Source of the DNA: Escherichia coli
Lineage (GTDB): Bacteria; Pseudomonadota; Gammaproteobacteria; Enterobacterales; Enterobacteriaceae
Assembly (NCBI RefSeq): GCF_011045215.1
Contig: NZ_CP049201.1
Strand: one strand, 5' to 3'
DNA: 64,000 nt
In this document: in pieces, positions 1,697 through 63,528 of the stretch
Numbering within the stretch: the stretch's first letter is position 1
Layout of the letters: the number at the start of each line of letters is the position of its first letter
Translations under genes and position numbers: made by a program
Notes under the pieces: model-generated
The model's database searches: none
What the model was told of the DNA's origin: nothing
Seen by the model: only the letters and a program-made list of their open reading frames with translations

Positions 1697-2038
1697 ATGC
1701 GAATATTTGTCTACGGCAGTTTACGCCACAAACAAGGCAACAGTCACTGGATGACCAATGCCCAGTTACTGGGCGATTTCAGTATCGATAACTACCAGTT
1801 GTATAGCCTGGGCCACTATCCAGGCGCAGTTCCGGGGAACGGAACGGTACACGGTGAAGTTTATCGTATTGACAACGCCACGCTGGCCGAACTTGATGCC
1901 TTGCGCACCAGGGGCGGTGAATACGCGCGCCAGTTGATTCAGACGCCGTACGGGAGTGCATGGATGTACGTTTATCAACGACCCGTCGATGGATTAAAGC
2001 TAATTGAAAGCGGCGACTGGTTAGACAGGGATAAGTAA
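1697..2038 (+). CDS. ytfP: Gamma-glutamylcyclotransferase-family protein YtfP
   Basis: 113 aa, MRIFVYGSLRHKQGNSHWM N-terminus (GGCT/AIG2-like fold signature YGSL); conserved synteny. Confidence 0.85.
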   Translation: MRIFVYGSLRHKQGNSHWMTNAQLLGDFSIDNYQLYSLGHYPGAVPGNGTVHGEVYRIDNATLAELDALRTRGGEYARQLIQTPYGSAWMYVYQRPVDGLKLIESGDWLDRDK

Positions 2039-2050
2039 CCATATGCATAC

Positions 2051-2076
2051 GCCACCTTCGGGTGGCGTTGTTTTTT
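2051..2076 (+). terminator. Rho-independent terminator after ytfP
   Basis: GCCACC-TTCG-GGTGGC hairpin followed by GTTGTTTTTT. Confidence 0.6.
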
Positions 2077-2249
2077 GCGAGACGACTCGCATTCTGTTTT
2101 GTAATTCCCTCACCTTTTGCTTTTCTCTCCGAGCCGCTTTCCATATCTATCAACGCATAAAAAACTCTGCTGGCATTCACAAATGCGCAGGGGTAAAACG
2201 TTTCCTGTAGCACCGTGAGTTATACTTTGTATAACTTAAGGAGGTGCAG

Positions 2250-2501
2250 ATGCGTATTACCATAAAAAGATGGGGGAACAGTGCAGGTATGGTCATTCCC
2301 AATATCGTAATGAAAGAACTTAACTTACAGCCGGGGCAGAGCGTGGAAGCGCAGGTGAGCAACAACCAACTGATTCTGACACCCATCTCCAGGCGCTACT
2401 CGCTTGATGAACTGCTGGCACAGTGTGACATGAACGCCGCGGAACTTAGCGAGCAGGATGTCTGGGGTAAATCCACCCCTGCGGGTGACGAAATATGGTA
2501 A
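2250..2501 (+). CDS. chpS: Antitoxin ChpS (ChpBI) of the chpB toxin-antitoxin pair
   Basis: 83-aa product MRITIKRWGNSAGMVIP... (AbrB/MazE-like); 4-bp overlap with downstream toxin gene; SD GGAGG upstream. Confidence 0.85.
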   Translation: MRITIKRWGNSAGMVIPNIVMKELNLQPGQSVEAQVSNNQLILTPISRRYSLDELLAQCDMNAAELSEQDVWGKSTPAGDEIW

Positions 2502-2845
2502 AGAAAAGTGAATTTGAACGGGGAGACATTGTGCTGGTTGGCTTTGATCCAGCAAGCGGCCATGAACAGCAAGGTGCTGGTCGACCTGCGCTTGTGCTCT
2601 CCGTTCAAGCCTTTAATCAACTGGGAATGACGCTGGTGGCCCCCATTACGCAGGGTGGAAATTTTGCCCGTTATGCCGGATTTAGCGTTCCTTTACATTG
2701 CGAAGAAGGCGATGTGCACGGCGTGGTGCTGGTTAATCAGGTGCGGATGATGGATCTACGCGCCCGGCTGGCAAAGCGTATTGGTCTGGCTGCGGATGAG
2801 GTGGTGGAAGAGGCGTTATTACGCTTGCAGGCGGTGGTGGAATAA
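2495..2845 (+). CDS. chpB: mRNA interferase toxin ChpB (ChpBK), MazF/PemK family
   Basis: 116 aa; MazF-like sequence; overlaps antitoxin gene stop. Confidence 0.85.
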   Translation: MVKKSEFERGDIVLVGFDPASGHEQQGAGRPALVLSVQAFNQLGMTLVAPITQGGNFARYAGFSVPLHCEEGDVHGVVLVNQVRMMDLRARLAKRIGLAADEVVEEALLRLQAVVE

Positions 2846-2924
2846 GGTGTGTTTATTTATCGCGGGCATAAAAAAACCCTTACTAACCGAAGCCCGGCGT
2901 TCAGGGTTATTACGCCAGAAGAAC

Positions 2925-3455
2925 TTATTTATTCTTTGCGCGCTCGAAGGAGGCAACGATTTCAGCTTTAGCGGCTTCTGCGTTTTCCCAACCTTCAACT
3001 TTCACCCACTTGCCTTTTTCGAGGTCTTTGTAGTGCTCGAAGAAGTGAGCGATTTGCGCTTTCAGCAGTTCAGGCAGATCGTTAACGTCTTTAATGTGAT
3101 CGTATTCTTTGCTCAGCTTGCTGTGCGGAACCGCAACCAGTTTCGCATCTTCACCGGCTTCGTCGGTCATTTTCAGAACGCCAACCGGACGGCAACGGAT
3201 CACAGAACCCGGCTGCAGCGGGTACGGAGTTGGGACCAGTACGTCAACTGGGTCACCGTCCAGAGACAGGGTGTGGTTGATGTAACCGTAGTTGCACGGA
3301 TAGAACATCGCGGTGGACATGAAGCGGTCAACGAACAGTGCGCCGCTCTCTTTGTCGATTTCGTATTTGATCGGATCTGCGTTAGCCGGGATCTCAATAA
3401 CAACGTAGATGTCTTCCGGCAGATCTTTACCCGCAGGGACGTTGAGTAAGCTCAT
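2925..3455 (-). CDS. ppa: Inorganic pyrophosphatase
   Basis: 176 aa [23 protein letters not shown]...; family I PPase. Confidence 0.92.
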
Positions 3456-4860: not shown

Positions 4861-6363
4861 ATGACGACCGACCAACACCAGGAGATCCTCCGCACCGAAG
4901 GATTAAGTAAATTTTTCCCCGGCGTCAAAGCGTTAGACAACGTTGATTTCAGCCTGCGCCGTGGCGAAATCATGGCGCTGCTCGGTGAAAACGGGGCGGG
5001 AAAATCAACGCTAATCAAAGCATTAACTGGTGTATACCATGCCGATCGCGGCACCATCTGGCTGGAAGGCCAGCCTATCTCACCGAAAAATACCGCCCAC
5101 GCGCAACAACTCGGCATTGGCACCGTCTATCAGGAAGTAAACCTGCTACCCAATATGTCGGTCGCTGATAATCTATTTATAGGCCGCGAACCCAAACGCT
5201 TCGGCCTTCTACGCCGCAAAGAGATGGAAAAGCGCGCCACCGAACTGATGGCATCTTACGGTTTCTCCCTCGACGTGCGCGAACCGCTCAACCGCTTTTC
5301 AGTCGCGATGCAGCAAATCGTCGCTATTTGCCGGGCTATCGATCTCTCTGCCAAAGTGCTGATCCTCGATGAACCCACCGCCAGTCTCGACACCCAGGAA
5401 GTGGAGTTACTGTTTGACCTGATGCGTCAGTTGCGCGATCGCGGCGTCAGCCTGATTTTTGTCACTCACTTTCTCGATCAGGTCTATCAGGTCAGCGATC
5501 GGATCACCGTCTTACGCAACGGCAGTTTCGTAGGCTGTCGGGAAACGTGCGAGCTACCGCAGCTCGAACTGGTAAAAATGATGCTGGGGCGCGAGCTGGA
5601 TACCCACGCGCTACAGCGTGCCGGGCGAACATTGTTGAGCGACAAACCCGTTGCCGCGTTCAAAAATTACGGCAAAAAAGGAACGATCGCACCGTTTGAT
5701 CTCGAAGTACGCCCCGGCGAGATCGTCGGTCTGGCTGGATTGCTGGGATCAGGACGTACCGAAACCGCCGAAGTGATCTTCGGTATCAAACCTGCTGACA
5801 GCGGCACGGCGTTGATCAAAGGCAAACCGCAAAACCTGCGATCGCCACATCAGGCTTCGGTACTGGGCATTGGCTTCTGCCCGGAAGACAGGAAAACCGA
5901 TGGCATCATCGCTGCCGCCTCGGTGCGGGAAAATATCATCCTCGCTCTCCAGGCCCAGCGCGGCTGGCTACGTCCCATTTCCCGCAAAGAGCAGCAAGAG
6001 ATTGCCGAACGCTTTATCCGCCAGCTTGGCATTCGCACACCTTCAACTGAACAACCGATTGAATTTCTCTCCGGCGGCAATCAGCAAAAAGTGTTGTTTT
6101 CACGTTGGCTACTGACCCGACCGCAATTTCTGATCCTCGATGAGCCAACCCGCGGCATTGATGTTGGTGCCCACGCCGAGATCATCCGCCTGATTGAAAC
6201 GCTATGCGCCGATGGTCTGGCGCTGCTGGTGATCTCCTCCGAACTGGAAGAACTGGTGGGCTATGCCGACCGGGTGATTATCATGCGCGATCGCAAACAG
6301 GTGGCGGAGATCCCGCTGGCAGAGCTTTCCGTTCCGGCGATCATGAACGCCATTGCGGCGTAA
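4861..6363 (+). CDS. ytfR: Sugar ABC transporter ATP-binding protein (tandem ABC domains)
   Basis: 500 aa; Walker A GENGAGKST, signature LSGGNQQK, Walker B LILDEPT; two ATPase domains. Confidence 0.88.
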   Translation: MTTDQHQEILRTEGLSKFFPGVKALDNVDFSLRRGEIMALLGENGAGKSTLIKALTGVYHADRGTIWLEGQPISPKNTAHAQQLGIGTVYQEVNLLPNMSVADNLFIGREPKRFGLLRRKEMEKRATELMASYGFSLDVREPLNRFSVAMQQIVAICRAIDLSAKVLILDEPTASLDTQEVELLFDLMRQLRDRGVSLIFVTHFLDQVYQVSDRITVLRNGSFVGCRETCELPQLELVKMMLGRELDTHALQRAGRTLLSDKPVAAFKNYGKKGTIAPFDLEVRPGEIVGLAGLLGSGRTETAEVIFGIKPADSGTALIKGKPQNLRSPHQASVLGIGFCPEDRKTDGIIAAASVRENIILALQAQRGWLRPISRKEQQEIAERFIRQLGIRTPSTEQPIEFLSGGNQQKVLFSRWLLTRPQFLILDEPTRGIDVGAHAEIIRLIETLCADGLALLVISSELEELVGYADRVIIMRDRKQVAEIPLAELSVPAIMNAIAA

Positions 6364-13678: not shown

Positions 13679-13722
13679 TTCCTCATTTCCCTGTTGCCTG
13701 CACTCAGGTAACAGGGAACTTA

Positions 13723-14187
13723 TCATCGCAAATGATGCACCACCTGATTGCTGCTGCCGCGCCAGATCAGGGAAGGGTCTTTTAAATCCTGCACAAATTT
13801 GCCGTCGACCAGCACGTTAATCAAATCAACAACCTGCATTTGCGCAGCGTTGAGTTCGTCGAGTTTATAGCCTGTCCACACCCAGATGTCTTTACCCGGA
13901 CACTCGGCGCGGATGCGTTGTACCAGTTTCAGAATATCCGGCACGTTTTGCGGATGCAGCGGATCGCCGCCGGAGAGGGAAATACCCTGGCGTTTGATAC
14001 GAGTGTCATTCAGATCGTTAATGATCTGGTCTTCCATTGCTTTAGTAAATGGCTGACCAGAATTTACCCGCCATGTGCTTTTGTTATAGCAACCGGGGCA
14101 TTCATGAACACACCCGGAGACAAACAGGGTGCTGCGTGTGCCGGGGCCGTTGACGATGTCGACAGGATAGTACTGATGATAATTCAT
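13723..14187 (-). CDS. nrdG: Anaerobic ribonucleotide reductase activating protein (radical SAM)
   Basis: 154 aa with CxxxCxxC (CVHECPGC) radical-SAM cluster motif. Confidence 0.9.
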   Translation of the reverse strand: MNYHQYYPVDIVNGPGTRSTLFVSGCVHECPGCYNKSTWRVNSGQPFTKAMEDQIINDLNDTRIKRQGISLSGGDPLHPQNVPDILKLVQRIRAECPGKDIWVWTGYKLDELNAAQMQVVDLINVLVDGKFVQDLKDPSLIWRGSSNQVVHHLR

Positions 14188-45182: not shown

Positions 45183-45267
45183 GCCGAAGTGGCGAAATCG
45201 GTAGACGCAGTTGATTCAAAATCAACCGTAGAAATACGTGCCGGTTCGAGTCCGGCCTTCGGCACCA
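45183..45267 (+). tRNA. leuX: tRNA-Leu (anticodon CAA)
   Basis: 85-nt sequence GCCGAAGTGGCGAAATCGGTAGACGCAGTTGATTCAAAATCAACC...GGTTCGAGTCCGGCCTTCGGCACCA; anticodon loop TTCAAAA; long variable arm; CCA end. Confidence 0.93.
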
Positions 45268-45456
45268 TAAAAAGCTTTTTTCAAGTCTACCAACGTCTAC
45301 TTTAGTCCATAAAAACAGTAAGTTAAGCAGAGTTTTGGCCTTTCTTAGTCTGTTCACGTCTACTTACTTCTATCCACATATACCAACGAATGATGGTATA
45401 ACTGGTGGTATCTTCGGTTCGATTGATTTTGATACCAACAGCGGAGGTATCAACTG

Positions 45457-46707
45457 ATGGCACTTACTGATATCAAAGTTAGGACTACCAAGCCCTCCGA
45501 CAAACCTTTCAAACTCACAGATGGGCAGGGTATGCACCTGCTGATCAACCCCAATGGTTCAAAATACTGGCGACTCCAATACCGTTTCGATGGCAAACAG
45601 AAAGTTTTAGCATTGGGTGTTTATCCAATGGTCTCTCTTGGTGAAGCTCGCAGGAAACGAGATGAGGCTAAAAAGTTGGTATCTGATGGTATCGACCCTT
45701 CCGAGAAGAAAAAGGCAGACAAGATCGAGCAGAGCGAAGCTCTTACTTTTGAATCTGTTGCCAGGGACTGGCATAAGGCTTGTAAAAGGAAATGGTCAGA
45801 TTCCCATAGCGAGAGAGTTCTAAAAAGCATGGAAGATGGTCTCTTTACTGCTCTTGGTAAAAGAAAAATATCCGAGCTTAATACCAGAGATCTTCTTGCC
45901 CCTATCAAGGCTGTTGAAGCTTCTGGGCGACTGGAAGTTGCTTCCCGCCTACAGCAAAGAACAACGGCAGTGATGCGATATGCTGTCCAGAACGGGCTGA
46001 TAGATTACAACCCTGCCCAGGAGATGGCAGGAGCTATTGCAGTAGCTAAAAGAGTCCACAGGCCAGCTTTGCCATTCGAACGATTCTCAGAACTTTTAGA
46101 ACGAATTGATAGTTTCAAGGGTAGAAAACTCACGAAGTTAGCCGTAAAGCTGACATTGCTCATTTTCATTCGTTCCAGTGAACTTAGGTTTGCTCGTTGG
46201 TCAGAGATAGATTTCGACAATGCCATGTGGACTATCCCTGGGGAACGTGAGCCATTGCCAGGGGTCAAACATTCTCATCGAGGCTCAAAAATGAAGACAC
46301 CACACCTCGTGCCGTTAAGTCGCCAGGCTATAGAACTCCTCAAAGCTATCAAAGAAATCAGCGGTGAATGTGAACTTGTATTCATTGGTGATCATGATTT
46401 TAGAAAGCCTATGAGTGAAAACACGGTAAACAAGGCTTTAAGGTCTATGGGCTACGACACTACGGTTGAAGTATGTGGACATGGTTTTCGTGCGATGGCA
46501 TGTAGTGCGTTGATCGAATCGGGAAAATGGTCAAGGGATGCTGTTGAACGGCAGATGAGCCACCAAGAGCGAAACTCCGTTCGTGCTGCCTACATTCATA
46601 AAGCAGAACACCTTGATGAAAGAAGGCTTATGTTGCAGTGGTGGGCTGATTACCTTAATGCCTTGAAAGATAGGTTTATCAGTCCCTTTGATTTTACAAC
46701 AAAGTAG
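45457..46707 (+). CDS. intB: P4-family tyrosine integrase (IntB-like) with N-terminal DUF4102-type domain
   Basis: 416 aa, MALTDIKVRTTKPSDKPFKLTDGQGMHLLINPNGSKYWRLQYRFDGKQK N-terminus typical of tRNA-associated island integrases; C-terminal HGFRAMA...R...Y catalytic region; lies 190 bp from the leuX 3' end. Confidence 0.9.
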   Translation: MALTDIKVRTTKPSDKPFKLTDGQGMHLLINPNGSKYWRLQYRFDGKQKVLALGVYPMVSLGEARRKRDEAKKLVSDGIDPSEKKKADKIEQSEALTFESVARDWHKACKRKWSDSHSERVLKSMEDGLFTALGKRKISELNTRDLLAPIKAVEASGRLEVASRLQQRTTAVMRYAVQNGLIDYNPAQEMAGAIAVAKRVHRPALPFERFSELLERIDSFKGRKLTKLAVKLTLLIFIRSSELRFARWSEIDFDNAMWTIPGEREPLPGVKHSHRGSKMKTPHLVPLSRQAIELLKAIKEISGECELVFIGDHDFRKPMSENTVNKALRSMGYDTTVEVCGHGFRAMACSALIESGKWSRDAVERQMSHQERNSVRAAYIHKAEHLDERRLMLQWWADYLNALKDRFISPFDFTTK

Positions 46708-46794
46708 CTTGATCAACGATTAACTATCCACTGGCATAGCCGTGTGATATGATTACAATGGCTATATTTTTAATTTAAATTTAATAGGTAAAAA

Positions 46795-47934
46795 ATGTCC
46801 ACAATTAACCCCGCAATTTTTTCTTTTTTCTCTGGTTCAGGATTTCTTGATCTTGGATTTGAAAAAAATGGTTATGAAGTGGTTTTCGTGAATGAATACC
46901 ATGCTCCGTTTATGGATGCATATAAACATTCGAGGAAAAAATTAAATATAGCACCACCTCGTTTTGGGTATGCAGAGTGCAGTATTGAAGATGTAGAACA
47001 TGAAAAAATTAAGTCTTCTATGCTTCAACTTAAAAATGAGGGGCGATTGACTGGATTTATTGGTGGTCCACCATGCCCGGATTTCTCTGTAGCGGGTAAA
47101 AATAAAGGTCGAGATGGTGAAAACGGTCGGCTTTCACAAAGCTATATTGATATCATTCTTGAAATGAAACCAGATTTCTTTCTTTTTGAGAATGTTAAAG
47201 GTCTATACCGTACCAGTAAACATAGGGAATTTTTTGACCATTTAAAAACTCAATTAGAATCGGTTGGTTATTGTTTGCATGAAAAACTAATAAATTCTAT
47301 TGAATATGGTGCTCCTCAAGATAGGCAACGAATCATATTGATTGGTTTCCTTGATGAAAAATATGCAAGCCAATTCAATTGGGGGCAAAGAGTCTACCCT
47401 GAAAGAACTGCATTTGAATATAAATGGCCGACGACAAACCAATTTTCAGAAAACACTTCTGTTATAAAACCAAAGGGTATCCCAGAAGAGTTAACAGTAG
47501 AGCATTGGTTCAAGAAAAACCAGGTTGATAATCATCCAAATGCAAAGCATGTATTCGCGGCAAGAGCAGGGCTTGCGAGGTTTTTGACTGTCGAAGAAGG
47601 GGATGATAGTAAAAAATCCTATAAAAGGTTACATAGATGGAGATTTTCACCAACTGCTGCTTACGGTAATAATGAGGTACATTTACATCCTTATAAACCA
47701 AGAAGAATTACTGTTGCCGAAGCATTAGCAATTCAGTCTTTACCAAAAGAATTTGAATTACCTGCTTATATGACTCTGTCTAATATGTTTAAAACTGTCG
47801 GTAACGGTGTACCCTACTTAGCAGCGGCCGGTATTGCCAAATCTATTATAGAGCATTTAGGAATCGAATATGAGAGTAACTGCGGCGAACTTAGCACAGG
47901 CGATTGCCAATCTACCAAGAAACACGCAGTTTAA
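46795..47934 (+). CDS. DNA (cytosine-5)-methyltransferase
   Basis: 379 aa with C5-MTase motifs: I FSGSGFLDLGFE (FxGxG), IV GGPPCPDFS (Pro-Cys), VI FLFENV, VIII QDRQR, X GNGVP near C-terminus; AT-rich. Confidence 0.85.
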   Translation: MSTINPAIFSFFSGSGFLDLGFEKNGYEVVFVNEYHAPFMDAYKHSRKKLNIAPPRFGYAECSIEDVEHEKIKSSMLQLKNEGRLTGFIGGPPCPDFSVAGKNKGRDGENGRLSQSYIDIILEMKPDFFLFENVKGLYRTSKHREFFDHLKTQLESVGYCLHEKLINSIEYGAPQDRQRIILIGFLDEKYASQFNWGQRVYPERTAFEYKWPTTNQFSENTSVIKPKGIPEELTVEHWFKKNQVDNHPNAKHVFAARAGLARFLTVEEGDDSKKSYKRLHRWRFSPTAAYGNNEVHLHPYKPRRITVAEALAIQSLPKEFELPAYMTLSNMFKTVGNGVPYLAAAGIAKSIIEHLGIEYESNCGELSTGDCQSTKKHAV

Positions 47935-48946
47935 TTATGTAAATGTGCGAAATTCGGGAAGAATCATTGTAACGAATGTTCAACTTCCCGAAGGCCCAAT
48001 AGAATTCAAAAGATTCGATCCAAAAAAGGGTGAGACACTGCATAGTTCTAAATCGGAAAGCATCTCCACACAAATGTTGTGGAGATTGGCTAATGCTTTA
48101 CAGGAAGATGTCCCTGTCAATTTGGATCGTATTTTTGGTGCAAGCTATAATACACGTGCTGTTCTCGAAAGCCTTTTGGCCCATACTCCTGAGTTTTATT
48201 GGTGTAAGCTTGATCGCCTTGAGGTAATGAACACTCAGAAAAATATTAAAAAAGGTCACAAGCACCTTATTTATAGACCAAATGACCCACATGAAAATGG
48301 TGTAGCAATAGAACATACTACTAATGTTATAATTTCTGAAATGAATTTAGATGTTGTCCATCAATCAGTTGATATAGAGACAATCTTACCTACTAAAGGA
48401 ATGACGATTGAGGAAAAAAGACGTCATGCACAAATTCAAATCTCATTAGTAAAAATAGGTCATTACTTAGGTTATCGGACATGGGTTGCAGCAAATGATC
48501 GTGGCCTCCAATATAATGGAAAATCTATAGCCCAAATGGATGGGGTCATAGATAATTTAAGAAATGAACAAGTGCTTCAATCATATGATAAAGCTATCAA
48601 AGAAGCTCGGCTTATAGATTGTATTTGGTTTCGAAATGGAAAATTAATGCCTGCAGTTATGGAGATTGAGCATAGCACTGGTATTAAAAGTGGTTTGGTA
48701 AGGATGAAACAATTTTATGATTATGCACCACAGTTAAAAAATATACGTTGGACCGTTGTGGCACCTGACGAATATAGAAATAAAGTTATAGAGTTTTCTA
48801 ATATGCCACAATTTAAAGAATTAGATACTCGATTCTTCCCCTATTCTGCTGTAGAGGAACTCTATTCATTATGTGCAAGAAGGAATCCTCAAGGAATTAC
48901 AGACGATTTCCTTGATGCATTCATGGAAAAGTGTGTGACACATTAA
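47870..48946 (+). CDS. Putative nuclease-like partner of the methyltransferase (candidate restriction endonuclease); function inferred
   Basis: 358-aa ORF; ATG with AGGA SD overlaps MTase 3' end by 65 nt (translational coupling); C-terminal D...E-x-E-x(6)-K-like stretch (LIDCIWF...VMEIEHSTGIK) compatible with a PD-(D/E)xK core. Confidence 0.45.
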   Translation: MRVTAANLAQAIANLPRNTQFNYVNVRNSGRIIVTNVQLPEGPIEFKRFDPKKGETLHSSKSESISTQMLWRLANALQEDVPVNLDRIFGASYNTRAVLESLLAHTPEFYWCKLDRLEVMNTQKNIKKGHKHLIYRPNDPHENGVAIEHTTNVIISEMNLDVVHQSVDIETILPTKGMTIEEKRRHAQIQISLVKIGHYLGYRTWVAANDRGLQYNGKSIAQMDGVIDNLRNEQVLQSYDKAIKEARLIDCIWFRNGKLMPAVMEIEHSTGIKSGLVRMKQFYDYAPQLKNIRWTVVAPDEYRNKVIEFSNMPQFKELDTRFFPYSAVEELYSLCARRNPQGITDDFLDAFMEKCVTH

Positions 48947-49083
48947 TCCTTCATAATCAGTTACCGGAGCAAATTACTTTTCTCCGGTTGGTTAACTGAA
49001 TATTAGTATTAAAATCTGATGGTGTTTATTTTATAAATATCAAATGTAATGGTATTTTCAATAATTATATCTAAGAGCGGTTT

Positions 49084-49893
49084 ATGAGAGTAATTAGCCC
49101 CTTTGAGGAATTGAAGAACTGGTTTAATCTTGATAACTATGAACCGATAAAATCGTTTACAATCAAGGAACTACATAGAGAGATTGTCTTTAGAGAAGCG
49201 ATTTTCGACAGTGTAAATTTTGGATGGGAAGATGATAATCAAAATTTAAGGTCTATCCTTGAAGGTAATCCTATTTTAAGCAGACAAGATAATAATCATG
49301 GTCATTTTGGCAAGGGCCAAAGACATGTTGCGCAGGTTAGCTTTGGTGATATAAAAAAATTAGAGAATAAGTTGATAATGTTTAGCATGGATTTTTTTGA
49401 AGAAAATGGTGATTTCAAAAAAGAGTTGAAAAAGAAACCAATAACAAAAACTATGAGAGACTTTTTTCTCAACAAAAATAGCAGCAAGATGTATGTATCA
49501 TTTGATTTGGGGTTATCTAGTGATGAGGAAATTATATCAGCCCTGCAAACTATGCTTCCAACTCTAAGGAAAGAATACGAGATTGACCCAGTAAAAACAG
49601 AAAAGATAGGGCTCGCAAAAATAAGAAAACTTGTCGATTACAACATTATTCCTATGATGGACTTACTAATTTGGTCAAAATTCAAAAAAGCAAAAATCTC
49701 AAATATGGTCTTGTCTCGTGTGTTGTATCCTGATTTCACTCACGAGATTAGAGGCGAAGATCACATTAAAGATACAGACAGGCCCATTGCTGAGAAGGCT
49801 TTAAATGGAGAGATAACTCGTAGTTTGGAGTACTTTCTTAGTAAAAACAGTCATCTCATCAACATACCGATTTCAGAACTCGGATCTCTCTAG
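49084..49893 (+). CDS. Hypothetical protein (269 aa), no recognisable motif
   Basis: Long AT-rich ORF, same strand as R-M-like pair. Confidence 0.55.
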   Translation: MRVISPFEELKNWFNLDNYEPIKSFTIKELHREIVFREAIFDSVNFGWEDDNQNLRSILEGNPILSRQDNNHGHFGKGQRHVAQVSFGDIKKLENKLIMFSMDFFEENGDFKKELKKKPITKTMRDFFLNKNSSKMYVSFDLGLSSDEEIISALQTMLPTLRKEYEIDPVKTEKIGLAKIRKLVDYNIIPMMDLLIWSKFKKAKISNMVLSRVLYPDFTHEIRGEDHIKDTDRPIAEKALNGEITRSLEYFLSKNSHLINIPISELGSL

Positions 49894-50058
49894 CTATAAA
49901 TCATCATGCAATTGTCAAGGGGATGGTGAAAATATTTTTCTTCCCCTAAATTTCTCTCCATTCTTTCCTCATCTAAATTTTCAGTTATCAGCACTCCCTT
50001 CATAGATACAAATCTGTGTGGCTAATATCTCCTTAACGGAAGCGGAGGAGACAGCCAA

Positions 50059-50265
50059 ATGAATACAACCAATCAAAGCTTAATTCGTTTACCAGAAGTC
50101 TTGAAACGAACTGGTTTCGGCAAGGCCTGGATCTATCGTCTGATCAGTGAAGGTCGGTTTCCGGCACCCGTTAAGATCGGAATTCGTGCCGTTGCTTTTG
50201 TCGAGAGTGAAGTTGACGAGTGGATTCTATCAGTTATCGAAACAAACAGAATTAAAGTTGCTTAA
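50059..50265 (+). CDS. alpA: AlpA-family transcriptional regulator / excisionase-like DNA-binding protein
   Basis: 68 aa; LIRLPEVLKRTGFGKAWIYRLISEGRFPAPVKIG...VAFVESEVDEWI matches the AlpA/MerR-like HTH of prophage CP4-57-type regulators. Confidence 0.85.
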   Translation: MNTTNQSLIRLPEVLKRTGFGKAWIYRLISEGRFPAPVKIGIRAVAFVESEVDEWILSVIETNRIKVA

Positions 50266-50286
50266 TTAAACCTAGGAGAGATTTTT

Positions 50287-50601
50287 ATGAATATCGAAGA
50301 ATTTATGAATGAAGAAAACCATATGTGCAATTTAGGCGAGGATCTTTTTTGCAAGATCTTCGAACCCGGAGCGATTTATGATTTGCCGAATAGCGATTTT
50401 AATAAAGAAATCATTTACTGGCTCAGTCAGTATCTTGTCGGAAATTTGAGACAACCTTTAGACGCGATCTCTGAGCTTGATATTTTCGAGCAGTTTTATG
50501 TTTACGAGACATGGTTCTCGCTAATTAAATGCCCAGATGAAATTAGAAATTTATCGAAACGGATAATTCGATATCAGATTGGGTTAAAAACCATTCTTTG
50601 A
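50287..50601 (+). CDS. Hypothetical protein (104 aa)
   Basis: ORF immediately downstream of alpA, 21-nt gap. Confidence 0.5.
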   Translation: MNIEEFMNEENHMCNLGEDLFCKIFEPGAIYDLPNSDFNKEIIYWLSQYLVGNLRQPLDAISELDIFEQFYVYETWFSLIKCPDEIRNLSKRIIRYQIGLKTIL

Positions 50602-50732
50602 AAGAACCTATATTTAGTACTATTTTGTAAATTGCATTGTTGAAATGATAGTGCTATTTGCTTTTTGATTTACAAAACATCTTTAACTTCTTTTAAAATA
50701 ATGGGTTAACTATTTTAAGTGAAAAGAAAGGA

Positions 50733-50762
50733 TTATAATATCCCTCTAGAGGGATATTATAA
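50733..50762. promoter_or_regulatory. 30-bp perfect palindrome upstream of the recombinase operon (candidate operator or recombination site)
   Basis: TTATAATATCCCTCTAGAGGGATATTATAA is perfectly self-complementary; lies about 130 bp upstream of the first recombinase gene in an AT-rich leader. Confidence 0.5.
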
Positions 50763-50893
50763 ATTTTCGGCCGGTATGCGTCATTGTAAAAGGGAATAAT
50801 ATTAAATTCAGGAAAATATATTTGTAAATTGCTTATGTTATATGCTTTATTTATTTTCACTGACAATTAAATGTAAATAGAGGCGATATTACT

Positions 50894-52156
50894 TTGAAAT
50901 ATAAAATAAAAAGATTGAAGAATAAAGATGGTATCAGAAGTTGCATTATTATTAATGAGAGCAACGGATTACCCTTGGTTTATTCTAACTTATATATGAG
51001 TGTTATTTCACGAACAAATAGCTATTCATTTTCAACAATGGAAGCAATAGCAAATGCTTTGCTTTTATTTGAAAGATATAATGCTTACATGAATGTGGAT
51101 GTTTTTGATATGGTAAATCCTGACATCGAAAAACTTGTCTCGAACAAAGGATATTTATTCGGGTTAATGAATGCCCTTTCTTACAGAAACGACTTAGAGA
51201 ATGTTACAAGCATTCTTAAAGAACAACATGTCTCTAAAAGAACCCTTTATTTCAAGATAATGACAATTGAAAATTACGTCAAATGGTTTTTTGATAACAT
51301 TGCTATCAATAATATTGATTCTTCTCGTTATGAAGCAATCAGTCGAGCATTTGATTTTATAAAGCCAAGAATAGAGAACGGAAAGAATTACAATATTGAA
51401 AGCGAAAGCAAATCATTGACAAATGAGCAAGTTACAACTTTGACTGATATGGTAAGTGTTAAATCTAAGATTAATCCATTTTCGGAGCATGTAAGGTTTC
51501 GAAATAATCTAATAATTAAAATTTTATTAGAGACAGGTATTAGGGGAGGGGAACTACTTAATATTAAGTTGGTTGATTTTGACTATGTCCACAAAAGTCT
51601 ATGCATAGTAAGAAGGCCAGATGATCAAAACGAACCACGATTAAGGCAACCATTGGTTAAAACTTTAGAAAGAAAAATACCATTGAGTATAGAATTGACT
51701 GAGTTAATACAGAATTATATTAGTGATTTCAGAGGTAAGCAGTGTCATGCAGGGGAGCATGACTATCTGCTTGTTACTCATAGCAGTAAAGGTCAATTAG
51801 GTCATGCATTAACTATTTCAGGTTATCAGAAAATTTTCGAACAAATTAGGAAAAATAGTAATGTTTTGAGCGATATTGTGGGGCATTCGCTAAGACATAC
51901 TTGGAATGTGAAATTCTCAGAAATGATGCTCATGAATTCGAACTCTCAGGAATATATTACTTATGAGAAAGTAAGAAATTATCTTATGGGGTGGAAAAAG
52001 AATAGTACAACCTCAGATATCTATAACCAAGCATTTATAGCACAAGAAAGCCGAAAAATAATGGCTGTTATTAATCCACTCAAAAACATAGTAGAGGACA
52101 AATCCAATGTTTCAAACTCTAAGAAAGCTACAAGAAAGTCAATATTCGGTTTTTGA
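50894..52156 (+). CDS. Tyrosine recombinase 1 of a three-recombinase operon
   Basis: 420-aa ORF (TTG at 50894; first ATG at 50996); conserved ETGIRGGELLNIKLVDF (box I Arg), HSLRHTW (HxxR) and ...SDIYNQ (Tyr) catalytic elements. Confidence 0.75.
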   Translation: MKYKIKRLKNKDGIRSCIIINESNGLPLVYSNLYMSVISRTNSYSFSTMEAIANALLLFERYNAYMNVDVFDMVNPDIEKLVSNKGYLFGLMNALSYRNDLENVTSILKEQHVSKRTLYFKIMTIENYVKWFFDNIAINNIDSSRYEAISRAFDFIKPRIENGKNYNIESESKSLTNEQVTTLTDMVSVKSKINPFSEHVRFRNNLIIKILLETGIRGGELLNIKLVDFDYVHKSLCIVRRPDDQNEPRLRQPLVKTLERKIPLSIELTELIQNYISDFRGKQCHAGEHDYLLVTHSSKGQLGHALTISGYQKIFEQIRKNSNVLSDIVGHSLRHTWNVKFSEMMLMNSNSQEYITYEKVRNYLMGWKKNSTTSDIYNQAFIAQESRKIMAVINPLKNIVEDKSNVSNSKKATRKSIFGF

Positions 52157-53432
52157 AACCAAGGATGGTAATTTCAAAGTGAACTTTTCTTATTCCAAGT
52201 GGAAGATAAGTGAAAGTATAACATTGAACATTGATTCTTTAAGAGTGGTCATCAGTGCATATATACCTATCAAAACCACTTTGGCATATTTCGCTATAAA
52301 TTATAGTGCCAGTTATACTAAGAAAATGTTTTATGCAGTAAAGCATTACATTAAGGCCTGTAATACGAATGATAGCTTGTTTTCTAAAGATTGCATAAAG
52401 TATTACTATAAAGTTGTGAGCTCATTAGATTACACACATGCAGAGACAGTCAAATATTTTTTTATGAAGATGAGTGGTCTTTACCCATCTTTGTTTTCGG
52501 CAGAAGCAATCATATTTTTAGAAAATATTAAAGTTAAAAAAACAAATGCAAACAAGTCTATAAAGACACATGATTATAAAAAAGGTCCCTTTAGTGACTC
52601 GCAATTAAAGGTAATTATAGATTCTGTAGCGATAGCTTATAAGGAAGAAAAGGTAAGTCTGTCAAACTATCTGCTAACCTTCCTTGTTGCATATTCCGGG
52701 CGGCGACCTATGCAAATATCTCAACTTGAAGCTGGTGATCTCTTTGCTTTTAATGGAGAGTACTTTCTCAATATCCCAAGAATTAAACAACGAAATGGAT
52801 ATAGAAAAGAGTTTAGAAAATTACAAATTCCAGAAGAGCTTTTTAGCCAATTGACATATCTCGTTGAAGCTGTGAATTCGCTGGTCAGTGACACATTAAA
52901 AATCGATTTAAGTGAAAAACAAAAGAGAAAACTACCAATTTTTATAAACACATATCCATTCAAAAAAGGATGTGTTGAGCTAAACATGATTGAAAGTGGT
53001 GGATTAAAACTTAACCCCTATGCCATAACACTAAAAATAAGGAACACTATAAATCGTTCAATAAATGAATATCAAGCCTATCTGGGGTGTATAAATTCGC
53101 GCAGATTTAGATATTCATTAGGCACTAAGGTTGCACAATTGGGTTATAGTCCTTCACTGATAGCAAATGTTTTGGACCATTCTTCAATCAATTCTGTTAT
53201 GAGTTATATAGAAAATACAGCGGAAAATGGCAAGAGAATTAATGAAGCTGTAAATGAACTAATGAAGCCACTGGCTAACAAATTTATTGAGGGAAAAGAG
53301 CTTCAGAAAGAGTTAGATTCTTTGAAGCATTTGATAGAAGAATACTGCGGTGGATATAAAACTAACTCTTTTGATAATACAGCAATATCGTTAGTAACTA
53401 ATTCTATCGACGATATGATCAATAGCATTTAA
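52107..53432 (+). CDS. Tyrosine recombinase 2 (divergent catalytic motifs)
   Basis: 441 aa; SD AGAGGA before ATG; AYSGRRPMQISQLEAGDL (box I), RRFRYSLG...LDHSSINSVMSYIE (box II-like with Tyr); overlaps upstream gene by 50 nt. Confidence 0.7.
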   Translation: MFQTLRKLQESQYSVFETKDGNFKVNFSYSKWKISESITLNIDSLRVVISAYIPIKTTLAYFAINYSASYTKKMFYAVKHYIKACNTNDSLFSKDCIKYYYKVVSSLDYTHAETVKYFFMKMSGLYPSLFSAEAIIFLENIKVKKTNANKSIKTHDYKKGPFSDSQLKVIIDSVAIAYKEEKVSLSNYLLTFLVAYSGRRPMQISQLEAGDLFAFNGEYFLNIPRIKQRNGYRKEFRKLQIPEELFSQLTYLVEAVNSLVSDTLKIDLSEKQKRKLPIFINTYPFKKGCVELNMIESGGLKLNPYAITLKIRNTINRSINEYQAYLGCINSRRFRYSLGTKVAQLGYSPSLIANVLDHSSINSVMSYIENTAENGKRINEAVNELMKPLANKFIEGKELQKELDSLKHLIEEYCGGYKTNSFDNTAISLVTNSIDDMINSI

Positions 53433-53447
53433 AAGAAGGATAAAGTG

Positions 53448-55052
53448 ATGAAAGAAATCCATGATAAAATGATTAATAACTTCATTATCGCTAATAAGGC
53501 CCATGCGAAAAATTTTGGAAATTTTGAGTGGGATAATTCAAGTTGGGGAGGCGGAATTACATTTTTTAGCGGAATCAAGGTTAGAATGGGGAACAAGAAT
53601 AAGAAATTAATGAATTATAACATTGCAGAGTTCGCAAAAGCATATGTATGGCATGAGTGCTTTCATGATTTATCTGTAGCTTTCAGAGTGCTGAGATTAT
53701 TTAGGATATTAGAAATTGCCATAGGTAAAACAAATAAAGAAGTTAAGATTTCAAGTATAGATCATAAAGTATTAGATGAAGTTATGACTATTGTTCAAGA
53801 AAATTTTGCAATATCCACTTCTTATAAAATATATTTAGATCTTAGGGTATTATGTTCTTTTATGTCTAAGAACGAAATGTTGCCAGAATCCATTACACGA
53901 TGGTCATATCCATTTAAGGCATATGATGCTTACACAAATAGCACAATGGATTCGATGGGAAATTTATCCAATCAGAAAAAACTTCCTGATGAAAAGGCTA
54001 TAGATTTTATTGGTAAAATATTTAGCTCTAATCCAGTTAATGAAAGGGATATATTTACATCTTCTATTTTTGCATTGCTCTTATGTGCTCCATCTCGAAT
54101 TAGTGAAATTATGCTTTTAGAAGAGGACTGTGAAGTTATAGTTGAAGATAGTAATGGCATATCAAGATATGGTTTGCGATTTCTTTCTCTGAAGGGCTTT
54201 GGATACAATACCAAATGGATTCCAGACTGTATGGTTTCTGTAGCTTCAAAGGCTATCATGCGATTGAAAAAACTTACAAGGAATGCAAGGGTTGTTTCTC
54301 GGTTAATAAAAGCAGGGGAAATTAATTTATACGAGTCATTAAACAAAAGTGCGTTTGATTGTTTAACAATTGAAGATCTCCACAAACTTGGCTTTGTTAT
54401 AAATCAATTAAATATCTCCCAAGAAAATCTAAAATTCTTGGCTAAGATAAAACATGGTACAGTCAGTGTAAAAGCATTTTGGATTTATATAGAGCGAAAG
54501 AATGTTAATTCTGAAAATATTAATGCTAATTTATGCTCCATAAATCATAATTTATTGGACTCTATCAAGGGTGCTGATATTTTTACAACAATTAAGGCAT
54601 CTTCAAAGTATTTTAGAGCGGATTTTCGCACCGATAATATGAATAACATATTTCATAGGAATATACATTTTAACTGTGATGGTTCTGTTTTAATTTTCCG
54701 CAGCCATCAAATTAGACATTTACTTAATACTATAGCTCAACGAAGCGTATTGTCAGAGATACAAATTGCCCAATGGTCTGGGAGAAGGAGTGTTAAGCAG
54801 AATTCAGTATATGATCATATGTCTCACAACGAGTTATCAGAACTATCAAGGAAACTATTGAACGGAAACACCTACGAAGAAACAAAAATTTCAGCATCTT
54901 CATTTAATGAACAATCGATTATTATGAATTTGATTAAAGATAAATTTGAAAAACTAGAATTAAAAATCCAAAATTCAGATCCAAGAAAAAGAAAATATAT
55001 TCTGGAAAAAATTAAAGATTTAAGATTGGAAATTGAATACATATTAATGTGA
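53448..55052 (+). CDS. Tyrosine recombinase 3
   Basis: About 534 aa (GTG-ATG at 53445/53448); CAPSRISEIMLLEEDC (box I), HQIRHLLNTIAQ (HxxRH), ...SVYDHMSHNE (Tyr). Confidence 0.7.
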   Translation: MKEIHDKMINNFIIANKAHAKNFGNFEWDNSSWGGGITFFSGIKVRMGNKNKKLMNYNIAEFAKAYVWHECFHDLSVAFRVLRLFRILEIAIGKTNKEVKISSIDHKVLDEVMTIVQENFAISTSYKIYLDLRVLCSFMSKNEMLPESITRWSYPFKAYDAYTNSTMDSMGNLSNQKKLPDEKAIDFIGKIFSSNPVNERDIFTSSIFALLLCAPSRISEIMLLEEDCEVIVEDSNGISRYGLRFLSLKGFGYNTKWIPDCMVSVASKAIMRLKKLTRNARVVSRLIKAGEINLYESLNKSAFDCLTIEDLHKLGFVINQLNISQENLKFLAKIKHGTVSVKAFWIYIERKNVNSENINANLCSINHNLLDSIKGADIFTTIKASSKYFRADFRTDNMNNIFHRNIHFNCDGSVLIFRSHQIRHLLNTIAQRSVLSEIQIAQWSGRRSVKQNSVYDHMSHNELSELSRKLLNGNTYEETKISASSFNEQSIIMNLIKDKFEKLELKIQNSDPRKRKYILEKIKDLRLEIEYILM

Positions 55053-55061
55053 GGAGATTAT

Positions 55062-55460
55062 ATGGCAAGAAAGTTTTATGATAAAGAAATAAAAGCTATT
55101 GTTAAACTTATTGAAACCTGGAGTAAGCCTGATTTCACTTGGGATTCTTTATGCGTGGCTTGCAAAAAAATTTTAGGTAAAGTACCTACACGGCAAGCAT
55201 TAAGCCAGCATAGTGAGATTGTCGTTGCGTATAGGACCAGAAAAAGATCTGGTATGGTTAAACGTCAAAATACGAAGTTACCCGGTAGCCTGAGCCTTGC
55301 GGCGAAAAGAATAGAACGACTTGAAAATGATAATTCGGCACTAAAATATGAAAATAATAATTTACTGCTTATGATTCAAAGAATGCACGAAAATGCTTAC
55401 AGGCATAATATATTGGCTTCTATTCTTGAAGAAGAATTTCCACAGAGAGCAAGAAAATAA
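55062..55460 (+). CDS. Small basic protein, fourth gene of the recombinase operon (possible DNA-binding accessory factor)
   Basis: 132 aa, starts 9 nt after recombinase 3; Lys/Arg-rich with predicted coiled-coil C-terminus. Confidence 0.55.
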   Translation: MARKFYDKEIKAIVKLIETWSKPDFTWDSLCVACKKILGKVPTRQALSQHSEIVVAYRTRKRSGMVKRQNTKLPGSLSLAAKRIERLENDNSALKYENNNLLLMIQRMHENAYRHNILASILEEEFPQRARK

Positions 55461-55545
55461 TATTTTGATAGGTTTTATCTATTGACAGGTGATGTTAATA
55501 TGGTATTTGTAAATATAGTCAGGAAGACAAAACTAACTTGCAAGG

Positions 55546-55983
55546 ATGCAATTTATGGACAAACAACACAATTTTCCAGTGGAAACACTGGAAGAGCAGC
55601 TTATTATTATCGTTGATAAATATATCTCAAAACGGTACCAGCCGGGCGATAAAAGTTTCTCATACCAGCTATACCTGCTTTTTGTTGGCTATCACTTAAA
55701 GTATTTCTACCCCAAAAAACTTTATACTCGCTCTAATCGCAACATAGACAACATTATGACAATGTTTAGTTCTGTATACAAATGTCTTACAAGTACTTTG
55801 TTACAGCGATTAAATAATAAGGAAGCTGTTATCAGGGAGCTAAACTCTCTCGTTAACTATATTGATAACAATCAAGAACGAGCAGAAGAAATCTTTATAG
55901 CTATCAAAACTCAATATGAGATAAAAGCAATAGAGAAAGAACTAACCCATGAAGTCGTTAGAGTAAAAAATGTTAGATTATAA
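55546..55983 (+). CDS. Hypothetical protein (145 aa)
   Basis: ORF ending at an intrinsic terminator. Confidence 0.5.
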   Translation: MQFMDKQHNFPVETLEEQLIIIVDKYISKRYQPGDKSFSYQLYLLFVGYHLKYFYPKKLYTRSNRNIDNIMTMFSSVYKCLTSTLLQRLNNKEAVIRELNSLVNYIDNNQERAEEIFIAIKTQYEIKAIEKELTHEVVRVKNVRL

Positions 55984-56010
55984 AAGCTCCCGAAAGGGAG
56001 CTTCATTTTA
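55982..56010. terminator. Bidirectional intrinsic terminator
   Basis: AGCTCCC-GAAA-GGGAGCT hairpin with flanking A/T runs between convergent genes. Confidence 0.7.
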
Positions 56011-56023
56011 CTAATTTTCTTTA

Positions 56024-56287
56024 TTAATAACTTCCTACTTGCCAGCCATCATCTGATTTTATTAATTTAACTGTTCCAGCTTGCTTTGTTCCGCTCATAT
56101 CCATAATTATATTGCACTTATAGCTTTTATCAGATTCTTTTGTGCAATCTACTTTTTTTACTGAAGTCAGATAGCTTCCAGTCCATTTTCGCATAGCTTT
56201 AAAAATATCATCTTGGGAAGGCTCACTACTACATGCAGTAAGAAGAAATACGGAAATAATAACAGCAAGGACCGAAGATATTTTCAT
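56024..56287 (-). CDS. Small lipoprotein
   Basis: 87 aa; signal peptide with lipobox LLTAC. Confidence 0.6.
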   Translation of the reverse strand: MKISSVLAVIISVFLLTACSSEPSQDDIFKAMRKWTGSYLTSVKKVDCTKESDKSYKCNIIMDMSGTKQAGTVKLIKSDDGWQVGSY

Positions 56288-56311
56288 TAGACTTAATCCT
56301 GATTAAGTATG

Positions 56312-56698
56312 TTACTGAAAAATGCCAGATTTTGTATTATTATTATCAGTAGAGAATGTCCATTTGCTGACAATTTCGCCTTTAAAATCTATTTCAAGAG
56401 TTTTGGACTGAGTCTGTGAACCACCAGTTAGTAGCCCAACTACAGGAATGAAAGTCGAGGCATTGAACTGATTGTTATACATAAAATATCTCCATTGCTC
56501 GTTGCCATCATCAAGAGTCGTTCTTGTATCTGGTTCACCTAACTTAGCGAGTAGCTCGTTCTTAGTAGTCTTGTTTTTAATGATCTTTGACTGAAGACTT
56601 TGTGCAGTTTCATTTTCAATTTGTTGGTTCCCGGATGTTGAGCAGCCAGAAATTAAAAATATTGCAATGAAAAAGGCGGTAACAATAGATTTATTCAT
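56312..56698 (-). CDS. Lipoprotein
   Basis: 128 aa; signal peptide with lipobox LISGC. Confidence 0.6.
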   Translation of the reverse strand: MNKSIVTAFFIAIFLISGCSTSGNQQIENETAQSLQSKIIKNKTTKNELLAKLGEPDTRTTLDDGNEQWRYFMYNNQFNASTFIPVVGLLTGGSQTQSKTLEIDFKGEIVSKWTFSTDNNNTKSGIFQ

Positions 56699-56727
56699 TC
56701 TATCTTCCTTATTATATTTGGTCAGGG

Positions 56728-57006
56728 TTAACTTTTATGTGTGAAAACGGCTCTGTGGGCAAATTTCTTGCGTAAATAAAATCTTAAAGAAATTGCTGAG
56801 GCAAAATAGATAACGACAGTTAATATAAAACTTTGACTGATAGCGAATATGAAGAAAGCAATTACTAACAGCACAATTCCTATGAGTAAAGCTAACCAGG
56901 CCGAAGGTTCACCATAATTTATTGTTGCGTGACAGCCGATACAGACACGAACTCCGAACGGACTCTCTTTGAAGCAGAACGGGCACTTAATGGTCTCTTT
57001 ACTCAT
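56728..57006 (-). CDS. Small membrane protein with N-terminal zinc-ribbon
   Basis: 92 aa; CPFC...CIGCH then one hydrophobic helix. Confidence 0.5.
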   Translation of the reverse strand: MSKETIKCPFCFKESPFGVRVCIGCHATINYGEPSAWLALLIGIVLLVIAFFIFAISQSFILTVVIYFASAISLRFYLRKKFAHRAVFTHKS

Positions 57007-57259
57007 ACAAACTCCGTTTATTCAACAGGTTCCTGATACTACAAATTGTTTAAAAATCATCAGGTTCTTTTCAGGGATTCTCGATGAATAATTATCTTTA
57101 GTAAAATCACTTGTACCGATCGATGTTTGAATCATGATAGGTAAAAACTATCATAACTAGATTATCGATCTGTATTAACGATCAATAATTTCTTGACATA
57201 ATATAAATTAGTTACTGTATAGTTAAGAGTGTTTGAGAATAATCAATACAAGTAATTGT

Positions 57260-58405
57260 CTATAAACGAATTTTTATCGCCTTGTTTAAAGGTTTCATTG
57301 CGTAGATATTTGAGAAGGTCGTGTGTGTTTTGTGAAGAATGGTCTTACCAAAGCTTCTCAGAAGCTCGATGTAATGCTTTATGGAAGCAAGCCACTCTAC
57401 GAATCTGAGATGCTTTTGCCGTTGTACTGCATTTTTTTGAAGAATCTTTCCTACGATTTCGTTTCGTTTGTCTTCTCTAAGCCGTAATTCCAGTTCTGCA
57501 ATTTTTTCAACGATACTTTCCTTTCTCTCAGTGGTTTTCAACACTGTTGCAGGAGCAGGAGCAGCAGGTTGGTCTTTTGTCGATATGTCGCTTCGTAGAG
57601 CTTCTAAGTGGTCGGGGTTGTAGTTAAGCCGATTACTGAGATTTGCCCAGGAGTAGCTCTTGCCCAATTGTGAAGCTTTGAAAGCTATGCCTGTGTATTC
57701 GAAAGAGAAGCCGTTCATTTTACCGGTAGAGGCAATATTGGCCTTCCAAGATACTTCAGCTTCTTCCAGCCTCTTGATAAAAGTTAGAAGGTCCGGCTTA
57801 TCAGATAAACTTTTATCAAGTATCTGCTGCAGAGCTTCTCTTGGTGAAAGCACCCCGGTTCGTTCCGATAGCATTTTCTCATTACGGGACACTCTCTTCC
57901 GCTTCGGTTGTGCTTGCGAGGGGGGAGATGCAGTTTTGGTCACTGTCAGGCCATGAGCGATTTCGAGTTTACTGATGATCTGTGTGCTGATGAGGTTTTC
58001 GTTCCTACCCAAGTAGAGCTTCCCACCATTGAGATCTATGCGACTTGCGATAATGTGTATGTGCTGGCCATCGTCGTCATGAAGCACATAGCAACGAAGG
58101 TGAGTATCCCTGAACCCCATCCTCTTCATGTAGTCATCTGCGATAATGGACCACTGTTCATTCGTTAGTGTTTCACCGTCGGGTAAGCGAAGTGAGTTGT
58201 GCCAAACGGGTTTTGCGACATCTAGGCGAAGATGCTTGGTGCTATCGAATTCAGCGATCATTTCAACGGCTGAATCACTTAACATGTTCCCGCCAATGAC
58301 GACTGGATCGCTTTTGTGGTGTGCTCCCGATTGTAATACATAACGAACAACACCAGCGAAGCTCTTACCCCTCTTGATCTTCCGCATACCCTTCACGAGG
58401 GACAC
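57260..58405 (-). CDS. Mobilisation relaxase (MobA/VirD2-like nuclease domain)
   Basis: 381 aa; three-histidine relaxase motif HDDDGQHIHIIASRIDL; immediately downstream of a MobC-like gene. Confidence 0.75.
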   Translation of the reverse strand: MSLVKGMRKIKRGKSFAGVVRYVLQSGAHHKSDPVVIGGNMLSDSAVEMIAEFDSTKHLRLDVAKPVWHNSLRLPDGETLTNEQWSIIADDYMKRMGFRDTHLRCYVLHDDDGQHIHIIASRIDLNGGKLYLGRNENLISTQIISKLEIAHGLTVTKTASPPSQAQPKRKRVSRNEKMLSERTGVLSPREALQQILDKSLSDKPDLLTFIKRLEEAEVSWKANIASTGKMNGFSFEYTGIAFKASQLGKSYSWANLSNRLNYNPDHLEALRSDISTKDQPAAPAPATVLKTTERKESIVEKIAELELRLREDKRNEIVGKILQKNAVQRQKHLRFVEWLASIKHYIELLRSFGKTILHKTHTTFSNIYAMKPLNKAIKIRL

Positions 58406-58739
58406 TCCAAAAATCTGTTCTTAACAAGTTGTGACGAAGCTCTTCAAGTTGTCGCTTCACAGCGAAAAGCTCTGTATGAGTAAGCTGGCTATCTTTACTC
58501 TTACTGTCGATATGGAGAGCAATACGATTCAACTTTTGTGATATGTCAGACAATTTTTTCCAGGCTTCAGTATTAATTGTCGGTACTACTGGTGGCAGGT
58601 TTTGCAGAAATGACATGCGGAGCCATTCACCTTTACTTTTATTACCTCGTTTTATATTTAAAATCTGTAATTCATTGTTGTTGAGTCGAACACTTATACA
58701 ATGTATTCTAATTCTGTCATCTAATCTTAATTTAGCCAT
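58365..58739 (-). CDS. MobC-family relaxosome accessory protein
   Basis: 124 aa; overlaps relaxase start by 41 nt; sequence pattern typical of MobC. Confidence 0.65.
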   Translation of the reverse strand: MAKLRLDDRIRIHCISVRLNNNELQILNIKRGNKSKGEWLRMSFLQNLPPVVPTINTEAWKKLSDISQKLNRIALHIDSKSKDSQLTHTELFAVKRQLEELRHNLLRTDFWSVPREGYAEDQEG

Positions 58740-58885
58740 ATAAGTTCCTTTTATATGATTTAATATGATTAATGATAGTTATTATTTCCCATTAGTCAAT
58801 AGCAGAACGGTTTTGATATATGGGTTTAATGTGCTAAAAATAAATCTCTCTGAAATAAAGTATTCAAAGATTCCCTAAATTAAAA
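58740..58885 (-). promoter_or_regulatory. Candidate oriT / mob promoter region (inferred from position only)
   Basis: AT-rich 146-bp gap upstream of mobC with short direct repeats (ATATGATT TAAT ATGATT AATGAT). Confidence 0.3.
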
Positions 58886-60049: not shown

Positions 60050-60237
60050 TCACCTATCCTTTGAGCCCAGGGGGCCATCAGTGTCATACATTTTCCGAGT
60101 CCTCGATGGCCGTTAATGTATGACATTGAAGGGCGGCGTAGCCGCCTTTGCGTCAGATCTTTCCAGAGATGTTTCTCCAACATCCCCATCCGTTGTAACA
60201 AAAGCCACAACAGATTCTGTCAAACAAGCGGTGAACT
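60050..60237 (-). ncRNA. Candidate structured ncRNA (possible retron msr-msd-like template) in the PRTase-RT spacer
   Basis: 188-nt non-coding spacer directly upstream of the RT; 15-bp stem (60078-60092 pairs with 60115-60129, one G-U) with 22-nt loop; adjacent GGCGGC-GTA-GCCGCC hairpin (60132-60146). Confidence 0.4.
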
Positions 60238-62296: not shown

Positions 62297-62339
62297 TATG
62301 TATATTAAAAAAAGGAGGTTGTCAATATTTAGAGGTTAG

Positions 62340-62588: not shown

Positions 62589-62643
62589 TATTATACTCCT
62601 TGATAATGATGGTTTATTTCAATGGGCTCGCGATATCACTACC

Positions 62644-63519: not shown

Positions 63520-63528
63520 GAAATCCCC

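Follow-up and report, generated by a model that had tools for sequence, protein, structure and literature searches.

PemI/PemK of plasmid R100 and Kis/Kid of plasmid R1 are one and the same system, and the chp genes take their name from being chromosomal homologues of pem. For ChpBI/ChpBK of E. coli K-12, the sources cited in PMC5408214 are Masuda et al. 1993 and Zhang et al. 2005. MazE/MazF of E. coli (chpA locus) belong to the same Pfam families as ChpS/ChpB and are encoded in the same antitoxin-then-toxin order; mazEF lies at a different chromosomal site, where it adjoins relA. PemIK is carried on plasmids, where it acts in post-segregational killing, whereas chpSB is chromosomal.

Like ChpB, MazF is a ribosome-independent endoribonuclease acting at AC-containing triplets; ChpB differs from it by a relaxed specificity (ACY, not ACA) and a weaker toxicity, and PemK was reported to cut UAH where ChpB cuts ACY (PMC5408214). 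ChpBK cleaves ACY (Y = U, A or G) on either side of the A, with a 2',3'-cyclic phosphate as product, and unlike MazF lowers protein synthesis only partly, which was attributed to its acidic pI and weak affinity for RNA (PMC5408214). Elsewhere the ChpB site is given as ACD and the enzyme is described as less processive than MazF (PMC12151602). Deletion of chpSB had no effect on the inhibition of growth and translation by Lon overproduction (PMC7167474), and uneven carriage of chpBIK among clinical isolates has already been reported (PMC11059956). What chpSB does for the cell is a question that the literature has not settled.

Here, the chpSB locus at positions 2250–2845 of a 64,000 nt stretch of E. 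coli DNA (the window, to which all positions refer) was compared with these systems. The locus is already known, ordinary and well studied, and the comparison adds nothing new beyond small corrections.

Gene pair, family membership and comparison with K-12

Coordinates and overlap of the two genes were taken from ATG-started open reading frames (ORFs). The antitoxin gene chpS (chpBI; 83 aa) occupies 2250–2501 and the toxin gene chpB (chpBK; 116 aa) 2495–2845, both on the plus strand, and the RefSeq annotation of a genome matching window positions 2100–2950 at 100% identity gives both genes identical boundaries. A Shine–Dalgarno sequence, AAGGAGG, was read at 2238–2244 (+), 5 nt before the ATG of chpS. 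The first possible chpS start in the ORF listing, GTG at 2244, falls inside this AAGGAGG, which leaves the ATG at 2250 as the credible one. The antitoxin gene comes first and the toxin gene second, with overlapping stop and start codons: the ATG of chpB (2495–2497) and the TAA of chpS (2499–2501) share the 7 nt stretch ATGGTAA at 2495–2501 (+). The same overlap of 7 nt is found in K-12, where chpS ends at 4448698 and chpB starts at 4448692 (NC_000913.3). The family scores and the identity to K-12 rule out chance ORFs.

Both proteins were assigned to families by profile searches. ChpS matches the Pfam family MazE_antitoxin (PF04014; residues 5–49, E 1.3e-11) and ChpB matches PemK_toxin (PF02452; residues 8–114, profile positions 1–108 of 109, E 7.8e-26). 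The NCBIfam equivalog for ChpS (NF008463) is passed with 196.5 bits against a cut-off of 101 over residues 1–83 of 83, and that for ChpB (NF007320) with 228.9 bits against a cut-off of 129 over residues 1–116 of 116. ChpS is predicted to consist of an N-terminal AbrB/MazE-type DNA-binding domain and a C-terminal toxin-binding tail, and ChpB would, by family, be a sequence-specific endoribonuclease of the PemK/MazF fold. Among solved structures, 16 chains of the MazF/Kid/EndoA type match ChpB at E ≤ 1e-3; a search by sequence found no solved structure of ChpB or ChpS themselves, the nearest being Kid for ChpB and MazE for ChpS.

Between the ytfP stop and the ppa stop, 7 nucleotides in 886 differ from K-12. 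A single difference, at 2151, lies in the ytfP–chpS intergenic region, and six lie in coding sequence, of which five are synonymous and one is a replacement. ChpS is identical to its K-12 counterpart (b4224) in 83/83 aa, with 3 synonymous nucleotide differences; ChpB is identical to b4225 in 115/116 aa, the sole difference being Arg89 here against His89 in K-12 (codon 89 at 2759–2761, CGC here and CAC in K-12). Gene lengths, overlap, Shine–Dalgarno sequence, upstream palindrome and neighbouring genes are shared with K-12.

Allele frequencies at codon 89 were obtained by an exact search with a 31-mer centred on this codon. The Arg89 word occurs in 2602 complete genomes and the K-12 His89 word in 380, and the His89 matches that were sampled are mostly K-12-derived laboratory strains; Arg89 is thus the majority allele and His89 of K-12 the outlier. 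In a large protein collection the exact ChpS and ChpB sequences are each present on at least 1000 contigs. At the site aligned to position 89, MazF has Arg, Kid has Lys and the Burkholderia homologues have Glu. Because the position is variable and Arg is the usual state in E. coli, the replacement gives no sign of lost function and is predicted not to be damaging.

The relatives differ from ChpS/ChpB to varying degrees. K-12 MazF is 40% identical to ChpB and K-12 MazE 33% identical to ChpS. In a BLASTP alignment R30 and T52 of ChpB stand opposite R29 and T52 of MazF, which we take to be the catalytic residues of MazF. Both ChpB and ChpS score below the MazF and MazE equivalog cut-offs, so that the two chromosomal pairs are paralogues and not orthologues. 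Identity between plasmid PemK and ChpB is 43.9% over 97% of the latter (tblastn), and of the solved structures Kid (1m1f) matches ChpB best (E 1.8e-21); by these sequence comparisons ChpB is marginally nearer to plasmid PemK/Kid than to MazF. ChpB has L79 and N81 where the alignment places R73 and D75 of Kid, presumably the catalytic residues of that toxin. With this degree of identity, with the Kid R73/D75 positions not retained and with a chromosomal context, the pair does not belong to PemI/PemK.

The nearest homologues outside Escherichia, within a plasmid collection, are ChpB-family pairs of Burkholderia with 61–62% aa identity. In those of Burkholderia glumae, B. multivorans and B. pseudomallei the two genes are likewise 252 and 351 nt long and overlap by an equivalent 7 nt, ATGGTGA; these pairs differ from the E. 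coli pair in being plasmid-borne beside integrase genes, in carrying Glu at ChpB position 89 and in their upstream repeats (TGTAGA/TCTACA), which are unlike the E. coli palindrome. The overlap geometry is a conserved trait of the family, found in K-12 and in the three Burkholderia pairs, and is consistent with translational coupling, which the 7 nt overlap probably supports.

Since both frames are intact, the gene order is kept, both proteins fall into the expected families and the sequence agrees with K-12, the genes are identified as chpSB. We hold it to be nearly certain that 2250–2845 is the intact chromosomal chpS–chpB (chpBI–chpBK) type II toxin–antitoxin (TA) operon of E. coli in its customary position between ytfP and ppa. 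The preliminary description had named the pair as chpSB (chpBI–chpBK), a type II TA system, at 2250–2845, exactly the span of the two plus-strand ORFs, and K-12 identity, intact frames and synteny bear it out; its description of the pair as a MazEF paralogue likewise agrees with the identities to MazF and MazE given above. It had proposed a comparison with K-12 as a check, and in that comparison neither a frameshift nor a premature stop appeared, the gene lengths being equal. Its figure of 4 bp for the gene overlap needs correction to 7 nt, in this strain as in K-12 and the three Burkholderia homologues.

Upstream palindrome, unit boundaries and proposed mechanism

Sequence signals around the pair were sought with inverted-repeat, promoter and terminator scans and by RNA folding. 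An inverted-repeat search identified an extended imperfect palindrome with 21 nt arms at 2205–2249 (+), a stretch identical to K-12. It contains a perfect 8-3-8 core, AGTTATAC-TTT-GTATAACT, at 2218–2236, adjoining the ribosome-binding site; the 64 kb window has a single occurrence of this core pattern, against 0.02 expected by chance. By analogy with MazE and Kis, the palindrome at 2218–2236 is likely to be an operator, and is put forward as a candidate binding site for ChpS or the ChpS–ChpB complex. Folded as RNA, 2205–2249 gives −18.3 kcal/mol (z = −4.5), and the Shine–Dalgarno sequence falls within the 3' arm of the extended palindrome; alternatively, then, the palindrome could, if transcribed, form an RNA hairpin covering the Shine–Dalgarno sequence. 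Consensus scans of the plus strand upstream of chpS returned no sigma-70 promoter past their thresholds. By eye, TATACT at 2221–2226 was noted as a possible −10 element.

On the upstream side an intrinsic terminator of ytfP, an 8 bp GC-rich stem followed by a T-run, was located at 2049–2068 (+) by terminator scan and inverted-repeat search. It is kept in genomes without chpSB, and it is the upstream boundary of the chpSB transcription unit, outside the TA system. On the downstream side, RNA folding gave a hairpin (AACCCU...AGGGUU) followed by UUUUUUU at about 2870–2908 on the minus strand, with a z-score of only −1.5 that makes the fold by itself weak evidence; the sequence is kept in relic-carrying genomes. 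This hairpin probably terminates ppa within the 79 nt gap between the convergent genes and would form the downstream boundary, again outside the TA system.

The pair would work as follows. ChpS would be made first, from the same transcript as ChpB, and the two are probably coupled in translation by the 7 nt overlap. The C-terminal tail of ChpS would, in line with the neutralisation described in the literature, bind and block ChpB. Its N-terminal AbrB/MazE-type domain probably binds the palindrome adjacent to the ribosome-binding site and represses the operon. Free ChpB would, as described in the literature for the K-12 protein, act as a ribosome-independent endoribonuclease of the MazF/PemK fold that cuts single-stranded RNA at ACY. 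We infer that chpSB is active in this strain.

Genomic context and distribution in E. coli

The gene order tamB–ytfP–chpS–chpB–ppa(−)–ytfQ–ytfR is the same in K-12 (NC_000913.3) and in strain OkiPb01695, with ytfP at 1697–2038 (+) and ppa at 2925–3455 (−) of the window. OkiPb01695 was the top match over window positions 2100–2950, with 100% identity, and the window is collinear with its core genes up to tRNA-Leu(CAA) at 45183–45267 and then diverges. Two side observations were made along this alignment. Between cybC and nrdG (window 13687–13727) about 386 nt of OkiPb01695 are absent, including an orphan antitoxin gene of the RelB/DinJ family; this is another small variable TA-related site within core genes. 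The ytfR gene (window 4861–6363) is an intact ORF of 500 aa; in OkiPb01695, ytfR and ytfT are marked as frameshifted by RefSeq, possibly as a result of assembly errors in that record.

The nearest island begins at the tRNA-Leu gene (leuX), 42 kb from chpSB across housekeeping genes, and takes up 45183–64000 of the window. It carries a P4-type integrase (45457–46707), a type II restriction–modification pair (C5 methylase, 46795–47934; restriction enzyme, 47870–48946), a DUF6387 protein (49084–49893) and three consecutive ORFs (50894–55052), two with matches to the phage-integrase (tyrosine recombinase) family and one without a Pfam match. These are followed on the minus strand by a relaxase (57260–58405), the RT (58886–60049) and PRTase (60238–61458) of a type III-A retron, an ankyrin-repeat protein (61694–62296), NsnC (62644–63519) and an ORF that matches only the C-terminal part of NsnB (63529–63921). 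Comparison of ChpS and ChpB with the PADLOC defence models gave no match for either protein at E ≤ 1e-5, and no link between chpSB and the leuX defence island was seen. The relevance to nearby defence islands for which the pair had originally been listed is thus weak, with the island 42 kb away and PADLOC without a match.

Presence of the pair was surveyed in 5426 complete genomes of E. coli. All but one of them (5425) have the ytfP and ppa flanks; chpSB sequence is present in 3099 and full length in about 3097 (57%), and RefSeq annotation of the pair likewise covers about 3097. A further 2322 genomes (43%) have at the same site a relic of chpB of about 146 nt from which chpS is deleted, so that the intact and relic forms together account for 5421 of the 5426. 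In the relic, chpS and its upstream signals are gone, and chpB codons ~6–36 survive at 72–82% identity and are joined to the last chpB codons at a TGGTGG repeat. Two readings of the site were ruled out: that strains without chpSB have an empty site, since the chpB relic is retained, and that chpSB is a strictly core pair, given its presence in 3097–3099 of the complete genomes. The description of the locus as core region accordingly stands for its position and flanking genes and does not extend to the pair itself.

Where chpSB is missing, the site bears the scar of a deletion instead of being empty, and it follows that loss, not gain, made the polymorphism; the ytfP–ppa polymorphism is a deletion of a known toxin–antitoxin system. 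The upstream non-coding flank is 85–87% identical between intact and relic forms (about 14% diverged), and the relic variants sampled diverge among strains by up to about 7%; on account of this flank divergence and relic variation both states look old.

Several individual records were recorded separately. In Nissle an esiB insertion lies just upstream of the relic. In strain HH45 a GC-rich, low-complexity stretch replaces chpS and is followed by the 5' part of chpB, 100% identical to the window, and then by the 3' end of the relic; this locus is probably an assembly artefact, and otherwise a recombinant of the intact and relic forms. A few plasmid-labelled records, some of them very large (0.37–4.9 Mb), carry chpSB at 99–100% identity; these are probably chromosomal segments, F-prime-like elements or mislabelled replicons and not evidence of mobility.

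Alternative explanations and significance

With loss as common as the survey shows, the copy in the window might itself be a decayed or inactivated pseudogene remnant and not a working TA pair, and ChpB is indeed one residue off K-12. Such decay is very improbable: both frames are full length without frameshift or stop, ChpS equals that of K-12, five of the six coding differences are synonymous, Arg89 is the residue of 2602 genomes against 380, and the Shine–Dalgarno sequence, the palindrome and the upstream intergenic region, all but base 2151, are those of K-12. A mislabelling, by which the pair would be mazEF or an integrated plasmid pemIK/kis-kid, draws on the membership of all three systems in the same Pfam families, on Kid as the best solved-structure match and on the 43.9% identity of plasmid PemK. 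It is already refuted, and we give it practically no weight. ChpB reaches only 63.5 bits on the MazF equivalog (NF007386; cut-off 120) and ChpS 35 bits on that for MazE (NF007312; cut-off 113), whereas the ChpB and ChpS equivalogs are passed; identities of 40% to MazF and 33% to MazE stand against 99–100% to K-12 ChpB and ChpS; the chromosomal context is that of the K-12 chpSB site; and the positions of Kid R73 and D75 are taken by L79 and N81.

A different question is why an intact pair is kept. It may be retained for an active role, in abortive infection against phages or in anti-addiction against plasmid PemK/Kid, and not as a neutral passenger or a general stress-response module. The near-complete split between intact and relic forms, with a flank 14% diverged, is compatible with long-term maintenance of both; the paralogue MazEF was reported to protect against RNA phages (PMC12151602); and a cross-interaction between chpB and parD (kis-kid) is credited to Santos-Sierra et al. 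1998 in the passage of PMC3598666 that cites them. Against this, neither protein has a PADLOC match, RNA phages of E. coli show no depletion of the ChpB recognition triplets ACG and ACU in their genomes (PMC12151602), housekeeping genes surround the pair and the nearest island is 42 kb away, and population structure alone can preserve ancient haplotypes. An active role is regarded as unlikely. We are equally doubtful that ytfP–ppa is an ancient, species-wide two-state polymorphism, intact in about 57% and a diverged relic in about 43% of genomes, in which selection keeps both states; simple lineage history is the alternative.

For annotation, the value of the pair lies in completeness, and chpSB should not serve to interpret the tRNA-Leu island. 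As His89 is the minority allele, K-12 is not the best reference for a "wild-type" ChpB. In the pan-genome sense chpSB is not core, and its presence or absence is a lineage marker. If selection does keep both states, this would mean that chpSB makes a real contribution to fitness, for instance against plasmids of the PemK/Kid type or some phages.
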